Shown here piece by piece: positions 7,743-59,939 of a DNA stretch of 64,000 bases (position 1 is its first letter; each line of letters begins with the position of its first letter). The notes under the pieces were generated by a model. That model worked only from the letters and a program-made list of their open reading frames with translations. It made no database searches and was not told the DNA's origin. The position numbers were made by a program, and so were the translations under genes. The stretch spans positions 4,487 through 68,486 of the forward strand of contig JAJEEK010000007.1 in the NCBI GenBank assembly GCA_022821065.1, read 5' to 3'. This DNA comes from Candidatus Poribacteria bacterium (lineage in GTDB: Bacteria; Poribacteria; WGA-4E; WGA-3G).

Positions 7743-8790
7743 GTGTTAGTTGTCGTCGTAGATAAGAATCAACACCCCCTCATGCCTACCAAGCCTTCAC
7801 GGGCAAGGCGTTGGATAAAATCAGGCAAGGCAACACCGTTTTGGAACAACGGCATCTTCTGCGTCCGATTAAACGTTGACCCATCGGACACTGAGTTCCA
7901 AGATATTGCTGTCGGTATAGACCCCGGTAGTAAGAAAGAAGGGATTACTGTTAAGTCAGAGAAGCATACCTACTTGAATGTGCAGGCAGAGGCTCACAGC
8001 AAAGTGGGTAAGAAAGTTGAAAAACGTCGTGAGTTGCGGAGAAGCAGACGCTCTCGGAAATGCCCGAATCGCAAGAACAGAACGAATCGTAACGCAGGCA
8101 AAGCGAAGCTACCGGCAGGGACGCGTGCGAGGTGGGATTGGAAACTTCGTATCCTTGAGTGGCTTTCAAAGTTGTATCCCGTCACACACGTCTGTGTAGA
8201 GGATATTAAGGCACGCACCATAGAACGTGCCAAGAAATGGAATCAATCGTTTAGTCCACTTGAAGTCGGTAAGCAGTGGTTCTATACCGAAATCCGAAAG
8301 CAGTGGCAGTTGCGAACCCTTCAAGGGTGGCAAACCAAAGAGATACGCGATCAGTTAGGACTCAAGAAGTCGTCAGAGAAGAAGTCAGAAACCTTTGCCG
8401 CACATTGTGTAGATTCTTGGTGTCTGGCACATCACGTTGTAGGCGGTTGTGTTTTGGACAACACAGACTTATTCTGTATATCACCGATACCGATCGTCAG
8501 ACGTCAACTCCATAGGCAGAATCCCCAGAAAGGTGGCAAACGCTCCCGATACGGCGGCACTGTTCTCGGGGATGGACTTATCAAAAATACGTTGATAAAG
8601 CACGTCAAATACGGTTTGACCCGTCTTGCGGGTGTCAACGCAAAAGGTAGATATTCCATCTACACTTTAGACGGTATACGACTGACAACACATGCAAAAC
8701 GTAACACGTTTAATGTGCTAACACGCCTCAACTTCAACTATAGGAGCGGGATTTCCTCCCCGTCTTAAAAGGCGAGGTTTCCATCCCGAA
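7523..8790 (+). mobile_element. Non-autonomous IS200/IS605-like element carrying isrB (no tnpA); boundaries approximate
   Basis: Near-identical subterminal hairpin motifs ccccgtcCtaaaGggcgagg (7544-7563) and ccccgtcTtaaaAggcgagg (8758-8777) lie on the same strand. The element is inserted between trpB and a HEAT-repeat gene. No Y1 transposase is present in the window. Confidence 0.5.
7743..8768 (+). CDS. isrB: IsrB-type OMEGA RNA-guided RuvC nickase (IscB homolog lacking the HNH insert)
   Basis: 341 aa, GTG start 8 nt after aaagagg. N-terminal PLMP domain (VDKNQHPLMPTKPSRARRWIKSGKA), RuvC-I VGIDPGSKKEG (D60), Arg-rich bridge helix RRELRRSRRSRK (RRXRR), RuvC-II VCVEDIK (E153), RuvC-III AAHCVDSW (H221/D224). 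Only about 60 aa separate RuvC-II and RuvC-III, with no HNH or Cys4 motif. Confidence 0.8.
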   Translation: MLVVVVDKNQHPLMPTKPSRARRWIKSGKATPFWNNGIFCVRLNVDPSDTEFQDIAVGIDPGSKKEGITVKSEKHTYLNVQAEAHSKVGKKVEKRRELRRSRRSRKCPNRKNRTNRNAGKAKLPAGTRARWDWKLRILEWLSKLYPVTHVCVEDIKARTIERAKKWNQSFSPLEVGKQWFYTEIRKQWQLRTLQGWQTKEIRDQLGLKKSSEKKSETFAAHCVDSWCLAHHVVGGCVLDNTDLFCISPIPIVRRQLHRQNPQKGGKRSRYGGTVLGDGLIKNTLIKHVKYGLTRLAGVNAKGRYSIYTLDGIRLTTHAKRNTFNVLTRLNFNYRSGISSPS

Positions 8791-11038: not shown

Positions 11039-14000
11039 ATGATAGAAGAGTCAATTCACGTACAAGGTGCGCGAGAACACAACCTACGCAATATTGACAT
11101 CCAACTGCCAAAAGATAAACTCATCGTCTTCACCGGCGTTAGCGGTTCAGGGAAATCTTCACTGGCTATTGATACCGTTTATGCTGAGGGGCAACGGCGA
11201 TACATCGAATCTCTATCCGCTTATGCCCGTCAATTTTTAGGGCAACTCGGAAAACCAGACGTAGACGAAATTATCGGACTCTCACCTTCTATCGCTATTA
11301 GCCAAGGGTCAACAGGACATAACCCGCGCTCCACCGTCGCTACCGTAACCGAGATTTATGACTATCTCCGTGTCCTCTATGCCCGCGTTGGGCAATTCCA
11401 TTGTGTTGAATGCGGAAGTGAAATCGGTTCACAAACCGAAGCGGATATAATTAAGGCACTCCTCGACTATCCTGACCGTACAAGGCTCATCGTCTTAGCA
11501 CCCATCGCCAGAGGCACCCGCGGCGCACACCAAAAAGAATTTGAGGACCTCCGAAAAGCCGGGTTCGCAAGATTAAGAGTGGATGGCGAGATACACGAAC
11601 TGCGCCCCGGTTTCGCTCTCAGCCCAAATCAACGCCACGATATTGATCTCGTCATTGACCGGATCGTCATTAAAGAGGGAATTGAGGCGCGGGTCACCCA
11701 AGCCGTAGACACAGCACTTTCGCGTGGGGACGGTATCATGCTCGTTCAAACGGTTTCGGATGCAAGCGAAGCATCGCCATTCCTGCCAGAGGAAGATGAC
11801 CGCATCTTTAGTAAAAACTATACCTGTTTAGAATGCGGGATTAGTTTCGTAAAACCGGAACCACGTCATTTTTCTTTCAACAACCCTGATGGGATGTGTG
11901 AAAAATGCAGGGGTTTAGGCGTACAGATGGGTATCTCACCGCAGCGAATCGTCTCTGATGGAACGCTCTCTATCATGAAGGGAGCAATCACCCTCTGGGG
12001 ACCCCTCAACAAACAGAAGCGCACCACAGAAAAAGCCATCGCTGAAGCCGTCGGAAAACACCTCGGATTTGACATCAAGACACCTTGGAACGAACTCACA
12101 CAGGAACAGCAAGACGCTATCCTTTACGGCACCGGTGACGCTGTCCTCACAATTACGGTCCCAAGCACAAGTGGACACAAAAGACGAAAACAGCGACGAC
12201 GACATCGTGTCCATTTTCACGGTATCATTCCAGCCGAAGAACAGAAATACTATTTTGAAGATAGTGCTGAGGTTTCCGACGAAGACAACTTTCCTGACCA
12301 TTTCGTCAAAATGCAGTGTAGGGAATGCGACGGCACCCGGCTAAACTCGTGGATAAAGTCCGTAACGGTAGCGGATACACCGATAACCGACATCCTCGAA
12401 ATGTCTATTCAGGACGCAACCGAATTCTTTAATAAAGTAACACTCCCAGAACGTGAAGCATTCATCGCCAAGGAACTCCTGAAGGAGATTCGAGGCAGAC
12501 TCGGTTTCCTTATGGGAGTAGGATTGGGGTACTTGACGCTTGCGCGTCCGGCACCGACACTCTCCGGCGGCGAAGCACAGCGCATCCGTCTCGCCAGCCA
12601 AGTCGGCGCAGGGTTACGTGATGTCACTTATGTCCTCGATGAACCAAGCATCGGATTACACCCGCGCGACCACGCCGGACTCCTCACAACGCTCCTAAAT
12701 CTAAGGAACCAAGGCAACACCGTTATTGTTGTTGAACACGATGAAGCAACGATGTTAGTCGCCGATTGGATCGTCGATTTCGGGCCCGGCGCAGGGATTA
12801 AAGGCGGGAAGATAACTGACATCGGAACACCCGCACAGTTCATCAAGGAGAGCAACTCACTTACGGCACAATATCTCCGCGGCGATAAAGTGATCGTCCA
12901 ACCCGAATCGCGGCGTCCCGCAGGAGATAGATGGATACAGATCTGCAACGCACGGCAAAACAACCTTAAAGAGATTAGTCCGAAAATACCGATCGGGACC
13001 CTCTGCTGTGTAACAGGGGTCAGCGGTTCCGGAAAGAGTTCCTTAATCCACGATATTCTCTACAACGCACTCGCTCGCGACCTCATGAAGGCGAAGACTG
13101 TACCCGGAGACTATGACGAAATCCGAGGGGTCATTGAAGACAAAAACGTTCCTATTTCTGATGTCATTGACAAAATTATCAATATCAACATGGCACCCAT
13201 CGGACGAACACCACGTTCTAACGCCGCAACCTACACAAAGGTGTTCGATGCGATTCGGGCACTCTATGCTGGCTTGCCTGACGCGAAACTACGCGGCTAT
13301 AAACCCGGACGCTTCAGCTTCAATGTTAGCGGCGGTAGATGTGAAGCCTGCAACGGCAACGGCGCGAAAAAGGTCGATATGGGACTGCTCTCCGATGTCT
13401 GGGTAGAATGCGAAGTCTGCGAAGGGAAACGCTTCAACAGCGAAACGCTCAGCATAAAATATAAAGACAAAAGCATCTCTGAAGTCCTCGAAATGGATAT
13501 TGATGCCGCACTCGAACATTTCGCCGATATCCCGAGAGTCGCAAGAGGGTTACAACTCCTCCACGATGTCGGTCTCGATTACATTAAACTCGGACAACCC
13601 GCACCGACACTCTCCGGCGGTGAGGCACAACGCATTAAACTTTCAAAAGAACTCTCCAAACGCGGAACCGGTAAAACACTCTATATCCTTGATGAACCGA
13701 CAACAGGGCTACATTTCGACGACGTAAATAAACTGTTGACGATCCTTCACAGACTCGTTGACGATGGTAATACCGTTGTCGTCGTTGAGCATAACCTTGA
13801 GGTTATCAATTCCGCAGACTATCTGATCGACTTGGGACCAGAAGGCGGTGTCGGCGGCGGAACAATCGTCGCTACAGGCACACCAGAGCAGATCGCTGAA
13901 ACCCCAGAATCTTACACCGGACAAGCACTCCGCGGCGATTTCGATATCTGGAGAGACGCGAAGCGACGACTCATGAAACCCGAACTCGCAGACATCTTCG

Positions 14001-16849
14001 GACAGGAACAAGACAGACGGACAGCAATCGCTGTGCAAGGGGCAACAGAAAATAATCTCAAGAATGTCGATATCGACATCCCGCATCGTAAAATGACAGC
14101 GTTGACGGGCGTCAGCGGCTCCGGAAAAACATCACTTGCACTCGACACCATCTACGCCGAAGGGCAGCGCCGTTACATTGAGACCCTTAGCACTTACGCA
14201 CGCCAGTTTATAGGGCAGATGGAGAAACCGAAGGTCTCGAAAATTGAGGGACTTTCACCCGCAATCGCTATTTCGCATGCAAACGCAGGGCAAAACCCGC
14301 GCTCAACAGTCGCAACGATCACCGAAATTCACGACGGACTCCGAACGCTTTATGCCAGATGGGGCAAACCCTACTGTCCAGATTGCCGCGAAGAGGTCCG
14401 ACCACAGAGCGCAGAGGAAATTGCAGAGAAGGCTTTTGAACTATTCCGCGATAAGCGAGTGGATGTTCTCGCGCCGCTCACAAACTTTATGCTACTTCCA
14501 GATGCTCAGGAAGGGGCAGTCCGCGGTAAAATGATTGACATCAACGCCAGCGAATCCGCATACGGGTTGAAAGGCAATGAAGATTACGCCGATCTCTTCA
14601 GCCGGTTGCAGAGAGCAGGCTTCGCACGCATCCAAATTGATAACGAAATTCATCGACTTGACGAAGCACCCAGACTGAGTAAAATCATCCGACATGAAAT
14701 CTTCATCGTCATTGATCGCGTTGAACTTGTTGACGAGGAAAAGAGCCGGTTTACTGAGGCAGTCGAGTTGGCACTCGTCCAAAGTGGCGGGTTCGTACTT
14801 CTCCAAGAGACCAGAGAAGCCATCGGCAAAGAGGTTTCCGAAAGCCGAAAGCCGAAAGCCGAAAGCCGAAAGCCGAAAGCCGAAATTAAAAAGTTCTTCA
14901 GCGAACACGCCATGTGCGCTTCTTGTGGTAACAATTTCGGACAACTCACACCACGCCACTTCTCCTTTAACAACAAAATCGGCGCATGTGATGTTTGTGA
15001 CGGACGTGGGATGAATATACACCCGCCTTATGATCGATGTCGCCATTGTCACGGCACACGCTTGAAATCGTTCCCAAGTTGCGTCATGTTTGAGGACACA
15101 ACTATCTCCGAATTGATGGAGATGTCTATTACCGAAACCATCGAATTCTTTAACACACGGCTGGCACAGATTGAAACGTCAGTCTCATCTCCTGTGGGTG
15201 CTGACGGTTCCCGAAGCGGTGAAGACGATCTCGCTGCGGCGAAAGGTGTGGCTACCTCCAGGGCAACGCATCCTGCACTCCATATTCATACCTCGCCTGA
15301 GTTTGAAGCCGAAGTCCTTCACCAAATTCGGATACGCCTGCAGTTCTTAGAAGACATTGGTCTCGGCTATCTCGCATTGGATCGCGGGGCACCGACACTC
15401 TCCGGCGGTGAAATGCGTAGGATTCAACTCGCAAGCCAACTCGGGAGCGGTCTTACTGGCGTAACCTACATCCTTGACGAACCGAGTATCGGATTGCACC
15501 CACGCGACCAAGAACGCCTCATTTCCGCACTTAAGGAACTTCGGGACATCGGCAATAGTGTCCTCGTTGTCGAACACGATCGAGACACAATATTAGCCGC
15601 CGATCACGTCATCGACTTCGGCCCTAACGCAGGCAAAGGCGGCGGTGAGGTCATCGCGACCGGCGCACCGGAAATCTTCACGCACAAACCGCCTGATACA
15701 GAGGAATCGTCCGTCAAATCATTGACGCAGGCATACCTCTCTAATGAAGTAGATATACCGGTTCCCAAGACTCGACGCGAAGGCACAGGTAAACAACTCG
15801 CGTTATACGGAGCAAAAACGAACAACCTCAAGGATATCGATGTTAAGATCCCACTCGGAACACTTACCTGTGTAACCGGTGTTTCAGGGTGCGGAAAGAG
15901 CTCGCTTGTTGAAGGCACCCTAAAACCAGCACTCGAAAGCAGTAACGCTATCAAAGCCGACGGTGCCAGAGACCGCCTCCATACTCACTATATCAGAGAT
16001 AGCAGGCCTGAACCCGTGCCTAACGATTATGGGACACCGGAGTATCGGAGCATCCGTGGCGTCAGTCATATTAAACGTCTCATCAATGTTGACCAGAAAG
16101 CGATCGGCGAAACACCGCGCTCCAATCCGGCAACCTACACCGACCTCTTCACGAAAATTCGGGAACTCTTCGCTGAGCAAAACGACGCAAAGATGCGAGG
16201 TTTCGGTATCGGGATGTTCAGTTTCAACCTCGCTTCGGGACAGTGCCATGTCTGTGAAGGACACCGTTTCAACCGCGTCGAAATGCATTTCCTACCCGAT
16301 GTATGGATGCCGTGTGAAGCATGTAATAGCACCGGTTATAGTCAGGATACCCTCGAAATCCGATATAACGATAAGAATATCGCTGAAGTTTTGGATATGA
16401 CGGTAGATGAGGCACTCGAATTTTTCAGCGATGACTCGCGTATCTGTCGGACGCTCCAGATGTTAGCAGATGTCGGACTCGGCTATATCCAACTCGGACA
16501 ATCCGCACCGACGCTCTCCGGTGGCGAAGCGCAGCGCGTCAAACTCGCGAAAGAGTTGGCACGGCGTACAACCGGTTCAACGCTCTATATCATGGACGAA
16601 CCGACGACCGGACTCCATTTTGACGACATCCAAAAACTCCTCAAAGTCCTCAACCGTCTCGTCGATGCAGGCAACACAATCATCGCCGTGGAACACAACA
16701 TTGATGTCATCAAGTCTGCCGATTGGGTCATCGACCTGGGACCGGAGGGCAGCAAGAACGGCGGAGAAGTCGTCGCTATGGGCACGCCAGAAGATGTCGC
16801 AAAAGTCCAAGAATCCCATACCGCTCGTTTCCTACGCGAGGTATTATAG
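11039..16849 (+). CDS. uvrA: Tandem-fused double UvrA (two complete excinuclease ABC subunit A units in one 1936-aa polypeptide)
   Basis: Four Walker A sites (GVSGSGKSS x2, GVSGSGKTS, GVSGCGKSS). Two copies of the N-terminal signature NL(R/K)N(I/V)DI..P......TGVSGSGK.SLA.DT.YAEGQRRY, at residue 1 and at about residue 990. Four LSGGE signatures and duplicated zinc modules. The frame is uninterrupted. Confidence 0.9.
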   Translation: MIEESIHVQGAREHNLRNIDIQLPKDKLIVFTGVSGSGKSSLAIDTVYAEGQRRYIESLSAYARQFLGQLGKPDVDEIIGLSPSIAISQGSTGHNPRSTVATVTEIYDYLRVLYARVGQFHCVECGSEIGSQTEADIIKALLDYPDRTRLIVLAPIARGTRGAHQKEFEDLRKAGFARLRVDGEIHELRPGFALSPNQRHDIDLVIDRIVIKEGIEARVTQAVDTALSRGDGIMLVQTVSDASEASPFLPEEDDRIFSKNYTCLECGISFVKPEPRHFSFNNPDGMCEKCRGLGVQMGISPQRIVSDGTLSIMKGAITLWGPLNKQKRTTEKAIAEAVGKHLGFDIKTPWNELTQEQQDAILYGTGDAVLTITVPSTSGHKRRKQRRRHRVHFHGIIPAEEQKYYFEDSAEVSDEDNFPDHFVKMQCRECDGTRLNSWIKSVTVADTPITDILEMSIQDATEFFNKVTLPEREAFIAKELLKEIRGRLGFLMGVGLGYLTLARPAPTLSGGEAQRIRLASQVGAGLRDVTYVLDEPSIGLHPRDHAGLLTTLLNLRNQGNTVIVVEHDEATMLVADWIVDFGPGAGIKGGKITDIGTPAQFIKESNSLTAQYLRGDKVIVQPESRRPAGDRWIQICNARQNNLKEISPKIPIGTLCCVTGVSGSGKSSLIHDILYNALARDLMKAKTVPGDYDEIRGVIEDKNVPISDVIDKIININMAPIGRTPRSNAATYTKVFDAIRALYAGLPDAKLRGYKPGRFSFNVSGGRCEACNGNGAKKVDMGLLSDVWVECEVCEGKRFNSETLSIKYKDKSISEVLEMDIDAALEHFADIPRVARGLQLLHDVGLDYIKLGQPAPTLSGGEAQRIKLSKELSKRGTGKTLYILDEPTTGLHFDDVNKLLTILHRLVDDGNTVVVVEHNLEVINSADYLIDLGPEGGVGGGTIVATGTPEQIAETPESYTGQALRGDFDIWRDAKRRLMKPELADIFGQEQDRRTAIAVQGATENNLKNVDIDIPHRKMTALTGVSGSGKTSLALDTIYAEGQRRYIETLSTYARQFIGQMEKPKVSKIEGLSPAIAISHANAGQNPRSTVATITEIHDGLRTLYARWGKPYCPDCREEVRPQSAEEIAEKAFELFRDKRVDVLAPLTNFMLLPDAQEGAVRGKMIDINASESAYGLKGNEDYADLFSRLQRAGFARIQIDNEIHRLDEAPRLSKIIRHEIFIVIDRVELVDEEKSRFTEAVELALVQSGGFVLLQETREAIGKEVSESRKPKAESRKPKAEIKKFFSEHAMCASCGNNFGQLTPRHFSFNNKIGACDVCDGRGMNIHPPYDRCRHCHGTRLKSFPSCVMFEDTTISELMEMSITETIEFFNTRLAQIETSVSSPVGADGSRSGEDDLAAAKGVATSRATHPALHIHTSPEFEAEVLHQIRIRLQFLEDIGLGYLALDRGAPTLSGGEMRRIQLASQLGSGLTGVTYILDEPSIGLHPRDQERLISALKELRDIGNSVLVVEHDRDTILAADHVIDFGPNAGKGGGEVIATGAPEIFTHKPPDTEESSVKSLTQAYLSNEVDIPVPKTRREGTGKQLALYGAKTNNLKDIDVKIPLGTLTCVTGVSGCGKSSLVEGTLKPALESSNAIKADGARDRLHTHYIRDSRPEPVPNDYGTPEYRSIRGVSHIKRLINVDQKAIGETPRSNPATYTDLFTKIRELFAEQNDAKMRGFGIGMFSFNLASGQCHVCEGHRFNRVEMHFLPDVWMPCEACNSTGYSQDTLEIRYNDKNIAEVLDMTVDEALEFFSDDSRICRTLQMLADVGLGYIQLGQSAPTLSGGEAQRVKLAKELARRTTGSTLYIMDEPTTGLHFDDIQKLLKVLNRLVDAGNTIIAVEHNIDVIKSADWVIDLGPEGSKNGGEVVAMGTPEDVAKVQESHTARFLREVL
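14838..14886 (+). repeat. Heptanucleotide microsatellite (CCGAAAG x6 plus CCGAAAT) inside the second UvrA unit
   Basis: Six perfect 7-nt units at 14838-14879, then one imperfect unit. They are translated as SRKPKAE SRKPKAE. Confidence 0.95.
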
Positions 16850-17179: not shown

Positions 17180-17398
17180 ATGATTTACATTAACGAAGAA
17201 CTCTGTGTCTATTGCGGCGCATGCGTCGCCGTCTGCCCCGAAAACATCATTGATCTGGTAGACACGCACCTGAAAATAGACCAACCTAAATGCACGGATT
17301 GTATGAAATGCGTCAAAGGATGCCCGATCGGTGTCCTCTCTATGGAGCGAAACGGAAAGATTTACGCTTTCGACTATCCCGACAGAGGACTCTTGTGA
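17180..17398 (+). CDS. 4Fe-4S dicluster ferredoxin
   Basis: CVYCGACVAVCP and CTDCMKCVKGCP motifs. The start is moved to ATG 17180 (MIYINEE). Confidence 0.8.
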   Translation: MIYINEELCVYCGACVAVCPENIIDLVDTHLKIDQPKCTDCMKCVKGCPIGVLSMERNGKIYAFDYPDRGLL

Positions 17399-17425
17399 TA
17401 ACAAACACAGCAGAAGGACGTATAG

Positions 17426-18619
17426 ATGCTACATTCAGAATATGATGTCGTTGTTGTGGGTGCCGGACCGGGCGGTTCGATAGCAGCAAAAATCGCCGCT
17501 GAAAACGGGTTGCGGGTGCTACTGTTAGAAAAACGACAAGAAATCGGGACACCCGTCCGCTGAGCGGAAGCAATCAGTACAGAGGCTCTGTGCGAATTTA
17601 TTCAACCAAACGCAGCTTGGGTGTCACACGATATACACGGGGCGCGCTTCTTTTCGCCAAATGAAACTTTCGTGACATTCCATCACCCAGGGATCGCCTA
17701 CGTCCTGGAACGCAAGGTTTTTGATCGAGCCATTACAGAGATGGCAGCTACCGCGGGGGCCGAGGTCGTCGTTAAAGCACGTGCTACTGGTGTCACTACA
17801 GCTAATGACGGGACCGTGAACGGTGTCGTGTTCCGACATTCAGGACGCGACTACACGTGTAAAACAAAGACAGTCATTGCAGCAGATGGCGTTGAATCCC
17901 AAGTTGCACGGTGGGCAGGTATTGATACCACCCACCGACTGCGCGATGTAGGGGTCTGCGCACAATATCTTATCTCAAATGTCGATATCGGAACTGACTA
18001 CTGCGACTTCTACTTCGGACGCGAGATCGCACCGCGGGGTTACGTCTGGGTATTTCCAAAAGGCGATGACATTGCCAACGTTGGTGTCGGTATCGGCGGT
18101 GCTATTTCAGGCAAAGGTGGCAAACTCGCGATTGATTATCTCAACGAGTTCGTCAAACGGAAGTTTCCGAAAGGCAAAATTTTAGGGTTAGTCTGCGGCG
18201 CAGTTCCAGTTGCGGAAAGCTTACCACAGCTTGTCGGAGATGGGATCTTAATTGTAGGTGATGCCGCACACCACAGTGATCCGATGTCCGGCGGCGGCAT
18301 CGCTAACGCAATGTATTCGGGAAAATTCGCTGCCGAAGCCGCAGTCGAAGGCATTCGCAGGGGCGATGTCTCCGAAAAAGTACTCGCCGCATATACAAAA
18401 CGTTGGAATAGCGAATTCGGAAAACATTTTAAAAATATCTGTCGCATCCGAGATGGGATCATCAAATTTAGTGACGAAACGCTTGATAGATATACAGAAA
18501 CGCTCTCTAAAATCCCCAGCGAACAGATAACAATGGCAAAGATTTTTCAAACATTACTAAGACACCAACCCAGTTTATTGCTCGAACTCCGCCATCTCAT
18601 CTTAGCAGGATGGATTTAA
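17426..18619 (+). CDS. Geranylgeranyl reductase-family FAD flavoprotein with in-frame UGA (codon 46, 17561-17563): candidate selenoprotein
   Basis: ATG 17426 gives [53 protein letters not shown]. This continues in the same frame into the 17621-18619 track ORF, which carries [11 protein letters not shown] (the YxWxFP motif of GGRs) and [15 protein letters not shown]. The TGA occupies the position of the conserved Cys in the P-V-x-C-[GA]-E motif. Confidence 0.7.
17577..17593 (+). promoter_or_regulatory. SECIS-like stem-loop downstream of the in-frame UGA
   Basis: gtacaga-GGC-tctgtgc forms a 7-bp stem (one G-U pair). The G-rich apical loop starts 20 nt after the UGA, a geometry similar to the E. 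coli fdhF SECIS. Confidence 0.5.
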
Positions 18620-29832: not shown

Positions 29833-30651
29833 TTATTCTCCTAAATTTTTCACGCAGCGAAATCCGATGGTGCTTCCAGATGAGAGGTGATACCATCTAT
29901 CTGCGACGCGGAGATCTGCAGGACTGCCACCCCATCCGCCACCGCGCAGGATACGGAAGTTTTCTTTATCGGGGGCGATCTCTCTGCCAAAGCGCGGGTT
30001 ATTTTCTGGACTCTGGCTATAGAATTCGCCGTTGTACTCGTCAAAACACCATTCCCAAACGTTGCCCGCCATGTCATATAGATTATAGCCGTTTGGTGGG
30101 AAACTGCCGACCGGGGCTGTCCATCTCCAACTATCTCCGCCACCTATGCCCCCGAGATTAGCATCTATCCGTGTTATTATATCACCATTCGGGTATAATT
30201 TTCCAGTGAGATTTCCCCGGGCGGCGTATTCCCATTCTGCTTCGGTGGGTAACCGTTTGTTTGCCCATGCGGCATAGGCGGCAGCGTCCGGCCAATTTAC
30301 GCCAACGACAGGCGAATCAGGCGCATTGAAGCGCGGGTTGTGCGACAGCGGCGGTTGAGGGTAGTCTGTGCTTTCGACGAATTTCTGGTAACGCGCGTTC
30401 GTTACTTCGTATACATCCATATAAAAGGCATCAAGCGCGACAGTATGTACGGGTTGTTCGTCGCTATCGCCGACAGTGGAACCCATCTGGAATGTTCCCG
30501 ATGGGATCAGCACCATTGTAGCACCGTCAAGCTCAGAAACGATTTCCATAGGGTGTTCGGTAGCAGTGACAAGCGAATCCTCATTGCGTTGTGGGCAGGC
30601 GCACATACCAATAGCAACAATACCGATGAGAAGGATCCCGGCAATCTTCAT
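29833..30651 (-). CDS. Formylglycine-generating enzyme family (SUMF1) lipoprotein
   Basis: Lipoprotein-like signal MKIAGILLIGIVAIGMCAC. FGE motifs RLPTEAEWEYAARG, GNVWEWC, RGGGW, GFRC. The ATG overlaps the selA stop (ATGA). Confidence 0.85.
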   Translation of the reverse strand: MKIAGILLIGIVAIGMCACPQRNEDSLVTATEHPMEIVSELDGATMVLIPSGTFQMGSTVGDSDEQPVHTVALDAFYMDVYEVTNARYQKFVESTDYPQPPLSHNPRFNAPDSPVVGVNWPDAAAYAAWANKRLPTEAEWEYAARGNLTGKLYPNGDIITRIDANLGGIGGGDSWRWTAPVGSFPPNGYNLYDMAGNVWEWCFDEYNGEFYSQSPENNPRFGREIAPDKENFRILRGGGWGGSPADLRVADRWYHLSSGSTIGFRCVKNLGE

Positions 30652-32060
30652 AGCGTTTCTGCTATATGCATGGCAGCTTCGACGATCCACGCCTGTTCTC
30701 TTCTATAGACTGTCCGAATATCTAACCAAAAAAGTCCGTCCTTGATTCTACCGATGATCGGAATTGTGGCGTTTCGGAACGCTGCAGCGAGTGTTTCAGC
30801 GGATACTTCTGCGGATTCAAGGACGAGCGAGACGCTCGGCAACGTCTCAACCGGTAGTGCACCACTCCCGATCTGCCCGTAGGTCTCCAAAACTTGAACA
30901 TCGATTTTTTTGCCGAAAATATCTTGGAGTTGCACTGTTAGCTCCTTCGCCATGGCGTGAAGGGCTTCTATAGATCGGGTATAACGGTTGAGCATCGGAA
31001 ACTGTTCAGCAATAGCCGCACCGTCGGTGAGATAGCGTTGCAGTGTCGCTGACAGTCCCGCGATGATGAGTTTATCAACCCTGAGTGCGCGCATCATCGG
31101 GTTCTTGCGCATCTTCTCAATCCATTCTGCTTTACCGACGATGATCCCAGCCTGCGGGCCGCCGAGCAGTTTATCACCGCTGAAGGTTACAATATCGACA
31201 CCGCTGGCGACGCGTTCTCCGACGAGCGGTTCGTGCGGAAGTCCGTAGTGTGTCATGTCAACAAGTGCACCACTGCCGAGGTCCTCCATCGTTGGGATAC
31301 CCTGTTCTACACCGAGTTCTGTCAATTCTTCCATCGCTGGTGTCGAAGTGAAACCGAGGATTTTATAGTTGCTCGGATGCACTTTGAGCAACAGACCTGT
31401 ATTTTCATTAATAGCCTCGGCGTAATCGCGAAGGTGGGTTCGGTTGGTGGTTCCAACTTCACGGAGTATCGCACCGCTTGCCGCCATCACGTCGGGGACA
31501 CGGAACGCTCCACCGATTTCGATCAGTTCGCCGCGCGAGACGATGACCTCTTTGCCGCGTGCCATCGTCTGAAGCGCGAGCAGAACGGCGGCGGCGTTGT
31601 TGTTGACGACCGTAGATGCCTCGCAGCCTGTCAACTGCTGAAGGAGCGGTTCGGTAATCCTGTCACGATGTCCACGCTGACCGGTTTCGATGTCGTATTC
31701 AAGGTTGACATAGTTTTGTGCGGCTTGCTGGATGGCTTGACAGGCAGTATCGCTGAGTAGGGATCTCCCTAAATTGGTATGTGTAACGGTGCCTGTTGCG
31801 TTGACAACGGGACGCATACGCGGTGCTGTTCTTGCTGCAATTTTTTGGAGCGTCCGTTCTGCGTATTCTGACAGTTCTGGCAGCTGTGTATAGTTTCCAC
31901 GCAGAATCTCGTTTCGGATGTCAGCAACGGCTGCGCGTAGAGCTTCCGTGACAAGTGGACGCGCGTAAATGGTTTGCAAGTCGAGTATCTCCTGTGTGTT
32001 CAGGAGTTTTTCAATAGCAGGTAATTGTCGCAGGAGGGTTTTATTTATATCTGCGTTCAA
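30648..32060 (-). CDS. selA: L-seryl-tRNA(Sec) selenium transferase
   Basis: 470 aa. N-terminus LRQLPAIEKLL and PLP-lysine region FSGDKLLGGPQAGIIVGK are typical of SelA. Confidence 0.9.
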   Translation of the reverse strand: MNADINKTLLRQLPAIEKLLNTQEILDLQTIYARPLVTEALRAAVADIRNEILRGNYTQLPELSEYAERTLQKIAARTAPRMRPVVNATGTVTHTNLGRSLLSDTACQAIQQAAQNYVNLEYDIETGQRGHRDRITEPLLQQLTGCEASTVVNNNAAAVLLALQTMARGKEVIVSRGELIEIGGAFRVPDVMAASGAILREVGTTNRTHLRDYAEAINENTGLLLKVHPSNYKILGFTSTPAMEELTELGVEQGIPTMEDLGSGALVDMTHYGLPHEPLVGERVASGVDIVTFSGDKLLGGPQAGIIVGKAEWIEKMRKNPMMRALRVDKLIIAGLSATLQRYLTDGAAIAEQFPMLNRYTRSIEALHAMAKELTVQLQDIFGKKIDVQVLETYGQIGSGALPVETLPSVSLVLESAEVSAETLAAAFRNATIPIIGRIKDGLFWLDIRTVYRREQAWIVEAAMHIAETL

Positions 32061-34753: not shown

Positions 34754-34956
34754 CGTTCAATGAATTAAATTGGTAGAAATTGATCATTGTATCACTTTGA
34801 TCGGATCAATACCTACCTCTCACATTTTACTATATTACGCCGAGCACGTTGAAAAGGACTCAAGTGCCGTGATTTAAGTGCTATGGCGGCTTCATCAAGC
34901 CATAACAGATGGATACCAAAATCCTATTTGTTATGCCTTATGCGATAGGAGTTAAT

Positions 34957-36585
34957 ATGAACCTCCGTTTTTTCGGCGGTGCCAATGAAGTTGGTGCCTC
35001 CTCCACATTAATTGAGATTGATAGATGCCGTATTCTTGTAGATGCCGGTATCCGAATGGGACCTGGACAGAACTCCCAGTTACCCGATTTCCCTGATTTT
35101 GATAAGGAAGGCATGCCAGATGCTGTCCTTGTGACGCATGCACATACAGACCATACGGGCGCGCTGCCAGTATTAAGGGACCTTTGGCTTGCAGGTGTGA
35201 AACTCTATTGGACACCTTCGATGAAGGCAATTAGTCACGTGTTGTTAAAAGACAGCGCGGAACGAATGCAGCGTGAGGAAGAAGAGGAGGGGAAACCTCC
35301 TCTGTATACGTGTGAAGATTTAGAGGTCCTGCTGCATTGCATGGAAGTTGAAGTTCCGTGGCTGGAACCCGTGGAGATATGTCCTGACGTAACAGCTACT
35401 TGGATTCCCGCTGGACATATTGTGGGCGCGGCGATGATCTATATTCAAGGCAAACACGAGAGTATCTTGATGACAGGTGATGTGTCCGTCACGCCACAGT
35501 CAACTATTCTTGGTTTAGATATGGAAAATTTGCCGTATCAACCCGATGTGATGATGATGGAATCAACTTACGGCAATCGCCAGCATGGAGTGACTCGGAA
35601 ACAAGAAGAAAAAAGACTTGTTGAGGATGTTGCCAAAACGATTGCAGCCGGCGGGAAAGTGTTAATTCCCGCGTTTGCTGTTGGGCGTTCTCAGGAGATC
35701 ATTCTCATCTTGAAGGGTGCAATGGAGCGTGGGGAAATTCCTGAGTTTCCAGTGTATGTTGATGGAATGGTGCGAAAAGTTAATGAGGTCTATTCGAGAT
35801 TTAGTGATGAACTTGCGCCCTCTTTGCGACGTAAAGCAGAACGCTGTGAGGACCTCTTTTATTCCGATGCCATTCAAAAGGTTTCTTCAAAGGAAGAAAG
35901 TGAGAGTCTTTTGGAGGGAACTCCTTGCTGTATCGTGGCATCTTCAGGTATGTTAATCGGCGGTAAGTCGAGTTTCTATGCTAAGCATTTAGCCAAGGAT
36001 CCCAAGAATCTGATTGCAATTACAGGTTATCAAGCTGAAGGGACTCCTGGGCGCACATTGTGGGATTGGGTAGAAGAAGCAGGCAGACCACCAGATTGGA
36101 TATGGCAACTGAATGATCAAGAATCTGTGGATGTGAAGTGTCAAGTGGAAAAATACTCACTTTCGGCACATGCAGACAGCGAACAACTACTGGCATTGGC
36201 TGAGAAAGTGCAGCCACGTAAACTGTTTCTCGTCCACGGTGACGCAGAGGCAAGAGGCAAGCTGTTTAAATCTGTACGCAAAAGGCTTCCTGACATAGAT
36301 GTGAAACTCCCCGAAAATGGCAAATCTTATAGCGTTGGAAAACAAGATGGCCTTTACAAAGGAAGACGTTTACGCTGCGACAGAATCCTCTCTGAGGTTT
36401 TTGATTTTGTGCGAAAGATGGAGCGGAAAGGTCCGTTTCGTGTTCGAGAACTGACAGAGATATGGTTCGGCACAGAAGCAACAACACAGATAGCAGTCAT
36501 GTTTTTTCAATGGTGCTTATCGTTGGATGTCCGCTATTTCAAACGCGGGTCTGATGATTTGTTCTATCTACGTCAGCCTGTTTAA
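34957..36585 (+). CDS. MBL-fold beta-CASP nuclease (RNase J/CPSF73-like) with about 100-aa C-terminal extension
   Basis: aggag RBS before ATG 34957. HxHxDH motif VTHAHTDHTGALP, beta-CASP motifs (MESTYG; SAHAD; LVHGD). Confidence 0.8.
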   Translation: MNLRFFGGANEVGASSTLIEIDRCRILVDAGIRMGPGQNSQLPDFPDFDKEGMPDAVLVTHAHTDHTGALPVLRDLWLAGVKLYWTPSMKAISHVLLKDSAERMQREEEEEGKPPLYTCEDLEVLLHCMEVEVPWLEPVEICPDVTATWIPAGHIVGAAMIYIQGKHESILMTGDVSVTPQSTILGLDMENLPYQPDVMMMESTYGNRQHGVTRKQEEKRLVEDVAKTIAAGGKVLIPAFAVGRSQEIILILKGAMERGEIPEFPVYVDGMVRKVNEVYSRFSDELAPSLRRKAERCEDLFYSDAIQKVSSKEESESLLEGTPCCIVASSGMLIGGKSSFYAKHLAKDPKNLIAITGYQAEGTPGRTLWDWVEEAGRPPDWIWQLNDQESVDVKCQVEKYSLSAHADSEQLLALAEKVQPRKLFLVHGDAEARGKLFKSVRKRLPDIDVKLPENGKSYSVGKQDGLYKGRRLRCDRILSEVFDFVRKMERKGPFRVRELTEIWFGTEATTQIAVMFFQWCLSLDVRYFKRGSDDLFYLRQPV

Positions 36586-49148: not shown

Positions 49149-50501
49149 TTAAGAATCCTTGACGTAGCCTGTCGTGCCGTTCGGATTGACCCATTCGGTT
49201 TCCCAGTGTGTCTCAATACCTTCGCGCCATGTCTGTGCCGCCTCTGTCAACTCAGCAGTGATGTCCGGGTGCGCGTCCTTCAGGTTCTGTGTTTCGCCCA
49301 TATCGGTTTCGAGATTCGCGAGATGTACATCGTCTTCCGGGGGCGCACCCTCTATCAATTGACCGTTAAGGACCAACTTCCAATTGTCACGACGCACAGC
49401 AGTCTGTTTACCCATCTCCCAATAGATTTCGCTGTGTGGCGTCGGCTCACCCTTTGCGACCATCGGTAGGACATTGAGTCCATCGAGTTCGTATTCGGAT
49501 GGATTGCCACCGGCTGCGGCAAGGAATGTTGGGAATACATCCATCGCTGCGCCAACTTCACCGATGACCTGTTCTGCTGGAATCTGTTCGGGCCAGTGCA
49601 TGATACCGGGTGAACGGATGCCACCTTCATAGAGACTGAATTTATGCCCCTTCAATTTTCCAGCGGTACCACCGTAATACGGGTCTTGACTGCCGTCTAA
49701 CCAGTTCCGTGTTTCACGCGAGGGACCGTTGTCGCTCTGAAAATAAGAGAACGTATTCTCTGCGAGTCCGAGCCGCTCTAATTCTGCGAAAATTTCGCCG
49801 ACGCTGTCGTCAACTGCGCTGAGCATCGCAGCCATGATTTGCCGGTCCCATGGTAAGTTCGGGAATCGGTCAACGTATTTTTGCGGTGCATGCATCGGAT
49901 AGTGCGGCGCATTGTAAGGCACATAAAGGAAAAAAGGCTTGCCGAGTTCGACAGACTTACGGATATACCGAATAGCGTATTCCGTAATGAGTTCCGTGAA
50001 GTACTCACCGTTTCGGTAGATTTCCACGCCGTTTTCCCAGAGATCGTGTGTCTGATCGATCCCGCGTTGTGCCATACCCCAATAAAAAATATGCGAAAAG
50101 AAGTCGATACAACCTGCCATGAAGCCGAACCAATCGTCGAACCCGTGGTGTTCAGGACGTGAACCTTCCGCGAGCCCCAAGTGCCATTTCCCGGACATTG
50201 CAGTGTAGTAACCGCGTTCCTTCAGCACTGTTGCGAGCGTAGGAACAGAGGGCGGCAGCCCTGTAGCAGTGCGATGCCCGGCTAAAATTGATCGGACTCC
50301 GGCGTGACACGGATATCGCCCTGTCAACAAAGCTGCGCGTGAAGGTGAGCAGACCGGTGAGTTCGAGTACCAATCTGTGAAACGGGCACCTTCGGCTGCC
50401 ATCCTATCGAGATGTGGCGTTTTGAAGTCGGTCGCGCCCATACAAGACAGATCGCCGTATCCTTGGTCGTCCGTTAGAAAAACTATAAAATTAGGTTGCA
50501 T
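49149..50501 (-). CDS. Arylsulfatase (formylglycine-dependent)
   Basis: FLTDDQGYGD and the CSPSRAALLTGR sulfatase signature. Confidence 0.9.
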   Translation of the reverse strand: MQPNFIVFLTDDQGYGDLSCMGATDFKTPHLDRMAAEGARFTDWYSNSPVCSPSRAALLTGRYPCHAGVRSILAGHRTATGLPPSVPTLATVLKERGYYTAMSGKWHLGLAEGSRPEHHGFDDWFGFMAGCIDFFSHIFYWGMAQRGIDQTHDLWENGVEIYRNGEYFTELITEYAIRYIRKSVELGKPFFLYVPYNAPHYPMHAPQKYVDRFPNLPWDRQIMAAMLSAVDDSVGEIFAELERLGLAENTFSYFQSDNGPSRETRNWLDGSQDPYYGGTAGKLKGHKFSLYEGGIRSPGIMHWPEQIPAEQVIGEVGAAMDVFPTFLAAAGGNPSEYELDGLNVLPMVAKGEPTPHSEIYWEMGKQTAVRRDNWKLVLNGQLIEGAPPEDDVHLANLETDMGETQNLKDAHPDITAELTEAAQTWREGIETHWETEWVNPNGTTGYVKDS

Positions 50502-57911: not shown

Positions 57912-59939
57912 ATGCAGAAGTTAGTGTTTGACGGGAAGCCGACGCATACGAATTCACTCGGTATGCAATTTGTACGGATTGAACCGGGAAGCTTTATAAT
58001 GGGGTCAGAGGACGCATCGCTATCAGATGAATTGACGGAAGGGAAGGCACATCTCCGCGATGGCGATTGGGATGAGAAACCGGTACATCAGGTAACGCTC
58101 ACGACACCATTTTATATCGGCATTTTTCAGGTTACCAACGCGCAGTATGCAGCGTTTGACCCGACACATCGTGAGTTGCCGAGCCTTCAGAACGTCGGTT
58201 TTTCAAAAGATGATGATGAAGCCGTCGTGTTTGTCGATTGGCACGATGCAACGCGCTTCTGCGAATGGCTCTCCAAGAAAGAGGGTTTGCCATACCGACT
58301 ACCGACCGAAGCGGAATGGGAATACGTGTGCCGTGCAGGTACGACGACGCATTTTCACACCGGCGATACCTTACCTCCTGAGTTCCATAAAAACGTTGGC
58401 GAGAGTTGGTATCCGGATGCCGGACGCAGCCGCGGTAAAGAAGAAATCATGCCGCTGCATGTCGGGCAAACGCCACCGAACGCGTGGGGCGTCTACGATA
58501 TGCACGGAAACGTTGAAGAGTGGTGCCAAGATTGGTACAGTACCTACGACCCACAACCGCAAGTTGACCCAGTCGGTGGAGAAGACGGATTGTATCGTGT
58601 TACGCGAGGTGGCAGTCATTCGACGTTGCTCTGTTATCTGCGCTCTGCAAACCGGATGGCAGCAGTCCCTGAAGATAAACACTGGTACATCGGGTTCCGA
58701 ATCGTTTGTGGCGAAATGCCGCAGACGGTGCCGACACCTGTACCGAAGGTAGCACGCTGGGGACGGGATGTCAAACAGGAACCTGCAAGTGCACCTGCAC
58801 CAGAGGCACCCTATTTCGCGGAGCCGTTGACGTTCGTTAAAATTCCAGACGGTTCAAACGGACCGCTCTTTTCAGCACATAACCACGTCCCGGCAATAAC
58901 GGAATGCCCGAACGGTGATATGTTCGCTGCGTGGTATTCATGTGTGACGGAACGCGGTCGTGAGTTGACGGTTGCCGCAAGTCGTTTGCGCTTTGGTGAA
59001 CCGGGATGGGAAGCTGCCGAACCGTTTTGGGGACCACCGGATCGGAACAATCATGCGACTTCTCTCTGGCGAAACGAGAACGGACGGATTTATCATTTTA
59101 ATGGACTCTCGGCTGCCGCAACGTGGGGACCGTTGGCTTTAGTGTTACGTCATTCCGACGATAACGGTGCGACGTGGTCAAAACCGCGCTTTATTTCGCC
59201 AGAGCATCGTCTCCGACACATGCCGATCGCCTCTGTTTTTCGGAGACAGGACGGTTCTATACTCCTCGCCTGCGATGCGGTGAGCGGGGGCAACGGCGGC
59301 ACCGCAATCTGGCTCAGCGACGATGATGCAGAGACGTGGTACGATCCAGGGACTGGACAACCGATCCCCGAATTTGATGCGGGAAAACAGGGCGGTTGGA
59401 TCGCTGGTATCCATGCCGCTGTCGTTGAACTCACCGACGGTAGACTGATGGCGTACGGGCGCGGTGATACGATTGATGGACGGATGCCGAAAAGCGTCTC
59501 GTCGGACGGTGGTCGGACATGGCACTACAGCGCAACCCAATTCCCTGTGCTTGCCGGTGGACAACGCTGCGTTCTGCTGCGACTTCAGGAAGGTCCCATT
59601 TTCTTGGCATCCTTCACAGGCGATCGGAGGGAACCGACCCCGATGCCAATCATTGACGCTTCTGGAAATGAGCGCCTCGTTACTGGACTTTTTAGTGCCT
59701 TATCTTATGACGATGGCGAAACGTGGGAACACATTCGCCCAATCACAGATGATGGAGCAGACCGAGAGATCGAAACGATGGACGGACGACACTTTACGAT
59801 GGGACTTAGCAGTGCTGAGCCGGGGGGTTACCTCGCAGTCTGCCAAGGACAGAATGGGGTCATCCATCTGATTAGCAGCCGTCTACACTATCGGTTTAAT
59901 CTGGCGTGGCTGAAAGAACCACCCCCATCAAAATTCTAA
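57912..59939 (+). CDS. FGE/SUMF1 domain fused to a BNR/sialidase-like beta-propeller domain
   Basis: N-terminal RLPTEAEWEYVCRAG, GNVEEWCQDW, RGGS. C-terminal DDNGATWS, SDDDAETW, SSDGGRTW and YDDGETW Asp-box repeats. Confidence 0.8.
   Translation: MQKLVFDGKPTHTNSLGMQFVRIEPGSFIMGSEDASLSDELTEGKAHLRDGDWDEKPVHQVTLTTPFYIGIFQVTNAQYAAFDPTHRELPSLQNVGFSKDDDEAVVFVDWHDATRFCEWLSKKEGLPYRLPTEAEWEYVCRAGTTTHFHTGDTLPPEFHKNVGESWYPDAGRSRGKEEIMPLHVGQTPPNAWGVYDMHGNVEEWCQDWYSTYDPQPQVDPVGGEDGLYRVTRGGSHSTLLCYLRSANRMAAVPEDKHWYIGFRIVCGEMPQTVPTPVPKVARWGRDVKQEPASAPAPEAPYFAEPLTFVKIPDGSNGPLFSAHNHVPAITECPNGDMFAAWYSCVTERGRELTVAASRLRFGEPGWEAAEPFWGPPDRNNHATSLWRNENGRIYHFNGLSAAATWGPLALVLRHSDDNGATWSKPRFISPEHRLRHMPIASVFRRQDGSILLACDAVSGGNGGTAIWLSDDDAETWYDPGTGQPIPEFDAGKQGGWIAGIHAAVVELTDGRLMAYGRGDTIDGRMPKSVSSDGGRTWHYSATQFPVLAGGQRCVLLRLQEGPIFLASFTGDRREPTPMPIIDASGNERLVTGLFSALSYDDGETWEHIRPITDDGADREIETMDGRHFTMGLSSAEPGGYLAVCQGQNGVIHLISSRLHYRFNLAWLKEPPPSKF

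Follow-up and report, generated by a model that had tools for sequence, protein, structure and literature searches.

A geranylgeranyl-reductase-family flavoprotein gene of Candidatus Poribacteria with UGA at the catalytic-cysteine codon: a probable selenoprotein

In a stretch of 64,000 nucleotides (hereafter the window) from Candidatus Poribacteria bacterium (GenBank assembly GCA_022821065.1, contig JAJEEK010000007.1, positions 4,487 to 68,486 of the forward strand), the gene at 17426-18619 on the plus strand (all coordinates are those of the window unless otherwise noted) is, as judged from its sequence, a complete gene for a flavoprotein of the geranylgeranyl reductase (GGR) family that carries UGA at the codon of the catalytic cysteine. 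We consider, with a probability of about 0.88, that this UGA, codon 46, is a genuine selenocysteine (Sec) codon, which would be read through with the help of a hairpin of the Sec insertion sequence (SECIS) type located immediately downstream. The evidence comes from the alignment of the UGA with an invariant cysteine of GGR, from the persistence of TGA at this single position among relatives, and from the covariation of the hairpin, which is present in the TGA-type genes and absent in the Cys-type relatives.

Reading frame, protein family and the UGA codon

From ATG 17426 to TAA 18617-18619 the plus strand contains one reading frame of 397 sense codons including UGA-46, and the sole interruption is TGA at 17561-17563, the proposed Sec codon at the flavin-proximal catalytic Cys. 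A mechanical list of open reading frames (ORFs) splits this gene into an ORF of 45 amino acids (aa) and another of 332 aa starting from GTG 17621. The sequence-only reading had joined the two into a single gene broken only by this TGA, with the Rossmann N-terminus for binding of flavin adenine dinucleotide (FAD) in frame with the downstream ORF, and both proposals hold: the frame is open to TAA 18619, and the glycine-rich sequence VGAGPGG (residues 11-17) lies upstream of the UGA. As read from the sequence, a Shine-Dalgarno-like AAGGA is located at 17414-17418 (plus strand), 7 nt before ATG 17426, while none is found at GTG 17621, supporting the former as the true start.

For family scoring, Cys was substituted for the UGA. 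With 236.6 bits (cutoff 158.8) the window protein passed TIGR02032, the model of the GGR family, and with 91.4 bits (cutoff 27) it passed PF22578 GGR_cat. The scores against three equivalog models of archaeal digeranylgeranylglycerophospholipid (DGGGPL) reductase were all below the cutoff (NF041160, 308 against 780; NF041080, 170 against 580; NF041385, 96 against 700), and the gene is thus not to be named DGGGPL reductase on sequence alone. The motifs known for GGR are all in place: in an alignment of 28 sequences, G12, G14 and G17 of the GxGxxG motif within VGAGPGG are invariant, and so are the PxxYxWxFP motif (P203-R-G-Y206-V-W208-V-F210-P211) and the GGG motif (G289-G290-G291), the latter two as defined in PMC10821996 and PMC6309074.

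Residues 5-392 align with the enzyme from Thermoplasma acidophilum (TaGGR; PDB 3oz2) with an E-value of 7e-80, in which EIGTPVR[UGA]AEAIS is aligned without gap to EIGSPVRCGEGLS of PDB 3oz2 and the UGA falls on Cys45. The corresponding column is TGT or TGC in 58 of the 58 distant homologs that could be placed, and is occupied by Cys in each of 27 closer full-length homologs; Cys-56 of the window protein is replaced by His or Arg in orthologs. The alignment thereby confirms the earlier proposal that the TGA occupies the conserved Cys of GGR, but corrects its numbering: Cys47, which had been assigned to the Thermoplasma enzyme, is that of Sulfolobus acidocaldarius, and the Thermoplasma residue is Cys45 (PMC6309074), in agreement with the 3oz2 alignment. 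This Cys is reported to be conserved throughout the archaeal GGRs and in each GGR of demonstrated activity, and is essential for catalysis by the S. acidocaldarius enzyme, SaGGR (PMC10821996, PMC6309074). It sits directly behind the isoalloxazine ring, and its role, described as speculative, may be in electron transfer or in modulation of the flavin reactivity (PMC10821996, PMC6309074).

The archaeal GGRs of known structure (T. acidophilum Ta0516, PDB 3oz2; S. acidocaldarius, PDB 3atq/4opc) thus share with the window protein the fold family, the length, the motifs and the flavin-proximal position. The window gene differs from them in being bacterial, in having UGA as the catalytic Cys codon and in scoring far below the DGGGPL reductase equivalog cutoffs, so that neither orthology nor an identical substrate is implied.

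Conservation of TGA and of the downstream hairpin

For comparison at the DNA level, with one genome per species, we collected 20 Candidatus Poribacteria loci (69-97% aa identity) and 60 distant homologs. One of the Poribacteria loci (L016) is a truncated contig that lacks codon 46, leaving 19 that cover it. The gene is also present on complete Poribacteria chromosomes (OZ253447.1, OY763324.1, OZ243938.1 and OY282444.1). Codon 46 is TGA in all 19, and never TAA or TAG; in contrast to this constancy, the genuine terminator of the GGR gene varies among orthologs between TAA, TAG and TGA. In addition, a degenerate DNA pattern containing TGA was used to scan metagenomes. Among the 40 stretches retrieved, GGR genes number 28; these share the in-frame TGA, their frame is otherwise open, and all full-length copies are intact. 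The other 12 were rejected as chance matches to the pattern, having neither GGR homology nor the hairpin. The sequence-only reading had proposed a search for both Cys-containing and TGA-containing orthologs in related genomes, and both were found, TGA in the 19 Poribacteria loci and Cys in others.

One of the metagenome genes, L120 (Ga0214473_10350667), is highly divergent. It carries the TGA at position 241, shares 44% identity with the window protein and no more than 48% with any homolog compared, and finds its closest matches among Ignavibacteria-type sequences. Its ORF, on a contig of 1.7 kb, is intact, and a hairpin GCGCAA-CGGGU-UUGCGC is found at the same offset. From its divergence, the Sec form exists in at least two lineages, and the sequence comparison suggests either an independent change from Cys to Sec or an old transfer. 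In the neighbour-joining tree the Sec forms of Poribacteria make up one clade, with a Cys-type sequence as the nearest outgroup. A protein of 398 aa (P0078) was an apparent Cys-type member of the Sec clade; its alignment, however, is gapped at the Sec column and extends over only 85% of the query, and it was taken as a case of miscalled start.

Selection was examined on both sides of the TGA. For codons 1-45, the proportion of nonsynonymous differences (pN) was 0.02-0.085 and that of synonymous differences (pS) 0.52-0.90 between the window and ten orthologs, with a ratio of the corresponding rates (dN/dS) of approximately 0.02-0.08 where computable. The 40 codons after the TGA are likewise constrained, and the interval from the TGA to GTG 17621 (codons 47-65) is conserved in frame. 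Purifying selection on both sides indicates that both sides are translated in the same frame.

These data bear directly on the possibility of a pseudogene or a split gene, in which the TGA would terminate translation and leave nothing functional, or only the 332-aa protein from GTG 17621. Public protein collections do present the gene in split form: among the best 80 protein clusters 56 are of 283-346 aa, covering 70-86% of the query, and no full-length protein (about 397-401 aa) occurs above 64% identity. The short lengths, however, follow from gene callers stopping at the TGA, and a 332-aa product would be devoid of the GxGxxG FAD-binding beta-alpha-beta unit and of the catalytic residue, in addition to the absence of a Shine-Dalgarno sequence at its GTG. 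As to decay, it had been stated at the outset that orthologs with additional frameshifts or stops would indicate a pseudogene. Such lesions are present in 2 of the 20 genome orthologs, a frameshift around codon 76 in L006 and a change of TGG to TAG at codon 65 in L020; the remaining 17 full-length Poribacteria loci are intact apart from TGA-46, as are the full-length metagenome copies. The strong purifying selection on codons 1-45, the in-frame conservation of codons 47-65 and the restriction of the stop to TGA at precisely one column throughout 47 sequences, with identities as low as 44%, all argue against loss of function, and we regard this explanation as highly improbable. The lesions in L006 and L020 could be either consensus errors of metagenome-assembled genomes or real decay in those lineages.

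Downstream of the UGA, a hairpin of 17 nt is located at 17577-17593 (plus strand), consisting of a 5' arm GTACAGA (17577-17583), a loop GGC (17584-17586) and a 3' arm TCTGTGC (17587-17593), that is, a stem of 7 bp with a GGC loop, or alternatively 6 bp with an AGGCU loop. The spacing from the UGA is 13 nt to the stem and 20 nt to the loop, exactly as had been noted at first inspection. According to the published criteria for bacterial SECIS (bSECIS) elements, the apical loop should be 3-9 nt with G in one of its first two positions, usually G[G/U], the upper stem 4-16 bp, the distance between UGA and loop 16-37 nt and the minimum free energy (MFE) no higher than -7.5 kcal/mol (PMC13188914). 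The window hairpin agrees with all of these (GGC loop, 7 bp, 20 nt, -10.5 kcal/mol), and under unconstrained folding 17 of the 20 genome sequences agree with all four bSECIS criteria.

The stem is maintained by selection on pairing. Of the cells of the seven pairs (46 sequences, 33 of them distinct), 96.5% are paired, compared with 13-64% in slid controls, and double compensatory changes were identified at four of the seven pairs (CG/UA, AU/GC, GC/AU and AU/CG/UA). The covariation score of the hairpin was not equalled by any shuffle. The third base of codon 53, which is the first G of the loop, never changes, even though the codon stands for Glu, Val, Ala or Pro; at codon 52 the replacement of Thr by Ala (ACA to GCA) is accompanied at codon 56 by that of Cys by His or Arg (UGC to CAC or CGC), so that the base pair is kept. 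Both observations argue that the constraint acts on RNA rather than on protein. The entropy at third codon positions is 0.64 within the hairpin codons as against 1.32 elsewhere. Furthermore, pairing at the same offset averages 6.7 of 7 among the TGA-type genes but 2.2 of 7 among 58 distant Cys-type genes, and the closest Cys-type relatives pair at only one or two of the seven positions. The likeness to bacterial SECIS geometry that was first pointed out from a single sequence is therefore upheld by the published criteria, by covariation and by the absence of the hairpin from Cys-type relatives.

Two other structures were considered and discarded. RNAalifold gave, with the first alignment, a different fold (-6.75 kcal/mol, a single covarying pair), weak and comprising the UGA itself, and this was set aside in favour of the explicitly tested hairpin; in the lower helices of the single-sequence MFE fold, double changes are missing and as many as 13 of 33 cells are broken at a given pair. 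Separately, the sequence CCGC-UGA-GCGG at 17552-17567 could form a mini-hairpin of 4 bp with the UGA in its loop. It is mostly conserved, with one pair broken in L001, L002 and L012, and its conservation may stem from the flanking Arg and Ala codons.

In comparison with canonical SelB-dependent genes such as E. coli fdhF, the Poribacteria gene is alike in having UGA at a redox-active Cys position, a short hairpin at a standard distance with a small G[G/U] loop, and selA. The minimal element of fdhF is likewise an upper stem-loop of 17 nt, about 11 nt after the UGA. The differences are that GGR is a new family for Sec, that the hairpin is a minimal one with no supported lower stem, and that it has no match in Rfam.

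Decoding of UGA-46

The gene for L-seryl-tRNA(Sec) selenium transferase, selA, which the sequence-only reading had also reported for the window, was identified at 30648-32060 on the minus strand by a full-length match to the equivalog model TIGR00474 (597.3 bits, cutoff 267.9). For the rest of the Sec machinery the literature offers indirect support: Sec-type group 4 hydrogenases occur in nine phyla, of which Poribacteria is one (PMC13582414), and SelA and SelB co-occur in most bins of sponge symbionts (PMC5649159).

We propose the following scheme. The hairpin 13 nt downstream of UGA-46 would act as a bacterial SECIS and recruit SelB carrying Sec-tRNA(Sec), which would be made from selenophosphate by the SelA encoded in the window. 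Sec would then be inserted at UGA-46 in place of termination, yielding one polypeptide, an FAD enzyme of the GGR family. Adjoining the isoalloxazine ring, the Sec residue may take over the role of the essential Cys, either as a relay of electrons or protons or in tuning the reactivity of flavin. Electrons would probably be supplied by a 4Fe-4S ferredoxin encoded upstream, as for the GGR-ferredoxin pair of Methanosarcina acetivorans, and the substrate would probably be a polyprenyl chain, likely that of an ether lipid of the geranylgeranyl-glycerol-phosphate type, as predicted from the gene cassette of sister lineages described below. Insertion of selenium, interaction with SelB, the electron donor and the substrate are thus what we infer for this gene.

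The DNA around the UGA by itself does not distinguish decoding as Sec from decoding as Cys, and the main rival of Sec insertion is that the UGA is read as cysteine by a non-canonical tRNA(Cys), tRNA-ReC (selC*), delivered by SelB, which would produce an ordinary Cys-type GGR by an unusual route. Such a mechanism exists and employs the same signals, SECIS and SelB (Vargas-Rodriguez et al. 2018, as described in PMC13582414). However, selA, whose known role is the synthesis of Sec-tRNA(Sec), is intact in the window; tRNA-ReC was reported in about 2.3% of other (non-UXXU) Sec-type genomes, and Poribacteria are not among the phyla named as carriers (PMC13582414). Moreover, the costly maintenance of both UGA and SECIS in 47 sequences of two lineages is hardly expected when a single change of TGA to TGY would suffice for Cys. 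Taken together, decoding as Cys appears unlikely, though the least so among the rivals considered.

General reassignment or leakiness of UGA, for instance toward Trp or Gly, can be judged from the use of TGA in the same DNA. TGA terminates 8 of the 41 long ORFs of the window and also the GGR gene itself in L010 and L015, and is thus an ordinary stop codon here, excluding general reassignment; the homologous column is Cys, and not Trp or Gly. A screen of the window for further long ORFs interrupted by TGA yielded no other convincing case but only noise, which speaks against a leaky UGA. That the TGA might instead be an error of sequencing or assembly was considered only because the sequences come from metagenome assemblies, nothing specific pointing to it, and the recurrence of the TGA in 47 independent assemblies, including long-read chromosomes, contradicts it. 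This group of explanations is effectively refuted.

Several observations weigh against the assignment of UGA-46 as a Sec codon, in addition to the lesions in L006 and L020. As to the machinery, neither selB nor selD was found among the 30 window ORFs annotated with NCBIfam or in the locus flanks examined, and ARAGORN detected no tRNA gene in the 64-kb window and no tRNA-Sec in 0.95 Mb of the collected sequence. As to the hairpin, Rfam, including its SECIS models, gave no match at the gathering threshold anywhere in the window; L011-L013 fold freely as a 5-bp stem with a 7-nt loop, CCGGCGY, that still contains C-GGC-G; the window hairpin taken alone is no more stable than expected by chance (z = -0.13, with equally good folding in 88 of 200 shuffles); and RNAalifold did not choose it unprompted. 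Because of the last two points, the case for the hairpin rests on the comparison among sequences. Finally, as regards the proposed function, neither the prenyltransferase UbiA nor the synthase of geranylgeranylglycerol phosphate (GGGP), which accompany the GGR gene in related loci, is encoded anywhere in the 64-kb window.

The suggestion that a Sec-type prenyl reductase does not belong to any recognised selenoprotein family agrees with the published catalogues. Sec-GGR is absent from the selenoprotein catalogues of 2022, 2025 and 2026 that were consulted, although an unnamed listing in the supplementary tables of large screens is possible. Neither the 2022 review, nor the 2026 review with a table of families (PMC13188914), nor the deep-Sep paper contains the word "geranylgeranyl", and a full-text literature search pairing selenoprotein or selenocysteine with geranylgeranyl reductase returned nothing relevant. 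Only two entries of the family tables are FAD enzymes, a type III sulfide:quinone reductase and a CoA-disulfide-reductase-like protein, and both act on sulfur substrates (PMC13188914). These resemble the GGR described here in that Sec replaces Cys close to the flavin. They perform, however, thiol/disulfide or sulfide chemistry on a fold with two dinucleotide-binding domains, whereas in GGR it is the C=C bonds of prenyl chains that are reduced, and Sec-46 is without a conserved partner Cys. The recoding apparatus looks like a canonical bacterial one and the enzyme is a canonical GGR; it is their combination that is new.

Ferredoxin partner, lipid genes and wider meaning

Immediately upstream of the GGR gene, as had been noticed beforehand, a gene for a 4Fe-4S dicluster ferredoxin of 72 aa is located at 17180-17398 on the plus strand (alternative ORF start, TTG 17153), ending 27 nt before ATG 17426. 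It was identified by the Pfam models Fer4_7, Fer4_9 and Fer4 and by NCBIfam ferredoxin models. Of 19 Poribacteria loci, 17 have a ferredoxin homolog directly upstream of GGR, as do most of the distant loci from archaea and bacteria, and fusion proteins between ferredoxin and GGR are also known (P0081 onward in the protein search). The GGR of M. acetivorans is reduced in vivo specifically by the ferredoxin encoded next to it (PMC10821996). The pair of GGR and ferredoxin genes in this organism (MA1484 and MA1485) is similar to the Poribacteria pair in the small adjacent ferredoxin gene, an arrangement conserved across lineages; its GGR has Cys where the Poribacteria gene has UGA, and for the latter the transfer of electrons from ferredoxin is only predicted.

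Eight Sec-type loci (L009-L015 and L017), like the Cys-type sister genes, have the ferredoxin/GGR pair situated between UbiA upstream and PcrB downstream. This cassette of UbiA, ferredoxin, GGR and PcrB is found, in locus coordinates, at about 1990-6020 in L009-L015 and L017, at 2925-5968 in L081, at 3729-6213 in L082 and at 70-4170 in L084. The best NCBIfam matches of the UbiA prenyltransferase are to prenyltransferase and DGGGP-synthase (geranylgeranylglycerol-phosphate geranylgeranyltransferase) models, below the cutoffs, and the PcrB-family protein passes the GGGP-synthase equivalog TIGR01769 (209-213 bits, cutoff 161.55). Since the four genes together correspond to an archaeal ether-lipid set, lipids of the geranylgeranyl-glycerol-phosphate type are the likeliest substrates. 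A search of the literature linking Poribacteria with geranylgeranylglyceryl retrieved only broad evolutionary works, a review on the last universal common ancestor and a study on ribosomal-protein trees.

In the lineage of the window itself (L001-L008 and L018-L020), a UvrA-like gene is present upstream and a gene for an extracytoplasmic function (ECF) sigma factor downstream, in place of UbiA and PcrB. With the cassette partners so displaced, we infer the substrate of the window gene from the sister loci. On the basis of these gene arrangements, we somewhat favor ferredoxin-dependent saturation of prenyl lipids as the function of Sec-GGR. The wider proposition, that Sec-GGR is an uncatalogued selenoprotein family which arose at least twice (in Poribacteria and in the unrelated L120) and serves in Poribacteria as the saturating enzyme of an archaeal-type ether-lipid cassette, is put forward tentatively, at odds slightly short of even.

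Other genes of the window were noted in the course of this analysis. The UvrA-like ORF upstream of ferredoxin (11039-16849, plus strand) is 1936 aa in length, about twice that of normal UvrA, with two sets of UvrA domains (UvrA_inter twice, UvrA_DNA-bind and ABC_tran), and its C-terminal part is conserved upstream of the ferredoxin-GGR pair in eight Poribacteria loci. An ORF of 341 aa at 7743-8768 (plus strand) resembles, in its N-terminal 156 residues, the RNA-guided endonuclease IscB (NF040563, 102 bits, cutoff 175). At 34909-36585 (plus strand) an ORF for a ribonuclease of the beta-CASP/metallo-beta-lactamase (MBL) type resembles, at about 310 bits and below the cutoff in either case, archaeal aCPSF1 and the model named type VII CRISPR-associated Cas14, which is unusual for a bacterium. 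Two ORFs resembling proteins of the formylglycine-generating-enzyme/GldK type and one arylsulfatase-like gene are located at 29833-30690 (minus strand), 57912-59939 (plus strand) and 49149-50501 (minus strand). The former two weakly match EgtB and the selenoneine synthase SenA, for the latter far below the cutoff (82 and 42 bits against 420), and one of them overlaps the end of selA.

The selenoproteome, for which new families are regularly described, is made up mostly of thiol oxidoreductases, and Sec-GGR would add to it a lipid-modifying flavoenzyme that reduces C=C bonds. The natural occurrence of both Sec and Cys forms of GGR would offer a probe for the role of the Cys, hitherto speculative (PMC10821996), in a group of enzymes that are biotechnology targets for the production of reduced isoprenoids (PMC6309074). 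For the annotation of genomes, at least 56 public protein clusters are truncated at the N-terminus and devoid of the FAD-binding motif, and metabolic reconstructions of Poribacteria accordingly carry a broken enzyme. The presence of an archaeal-type ether-lipid cassette in some Poribacteria bears on the question of the "lipid divide". If the wider proposition of a Sec-type family serving an ether-lipid cassette holds, the exchange of Cys for Sec would indicate a direct catalytic part of this residue, such as a relay of protons or electrons or the formation of a flavin adduct, and not a structural one only, and the supply of selenium would affect the saturation of membrane lipids in a bacterial phylum.

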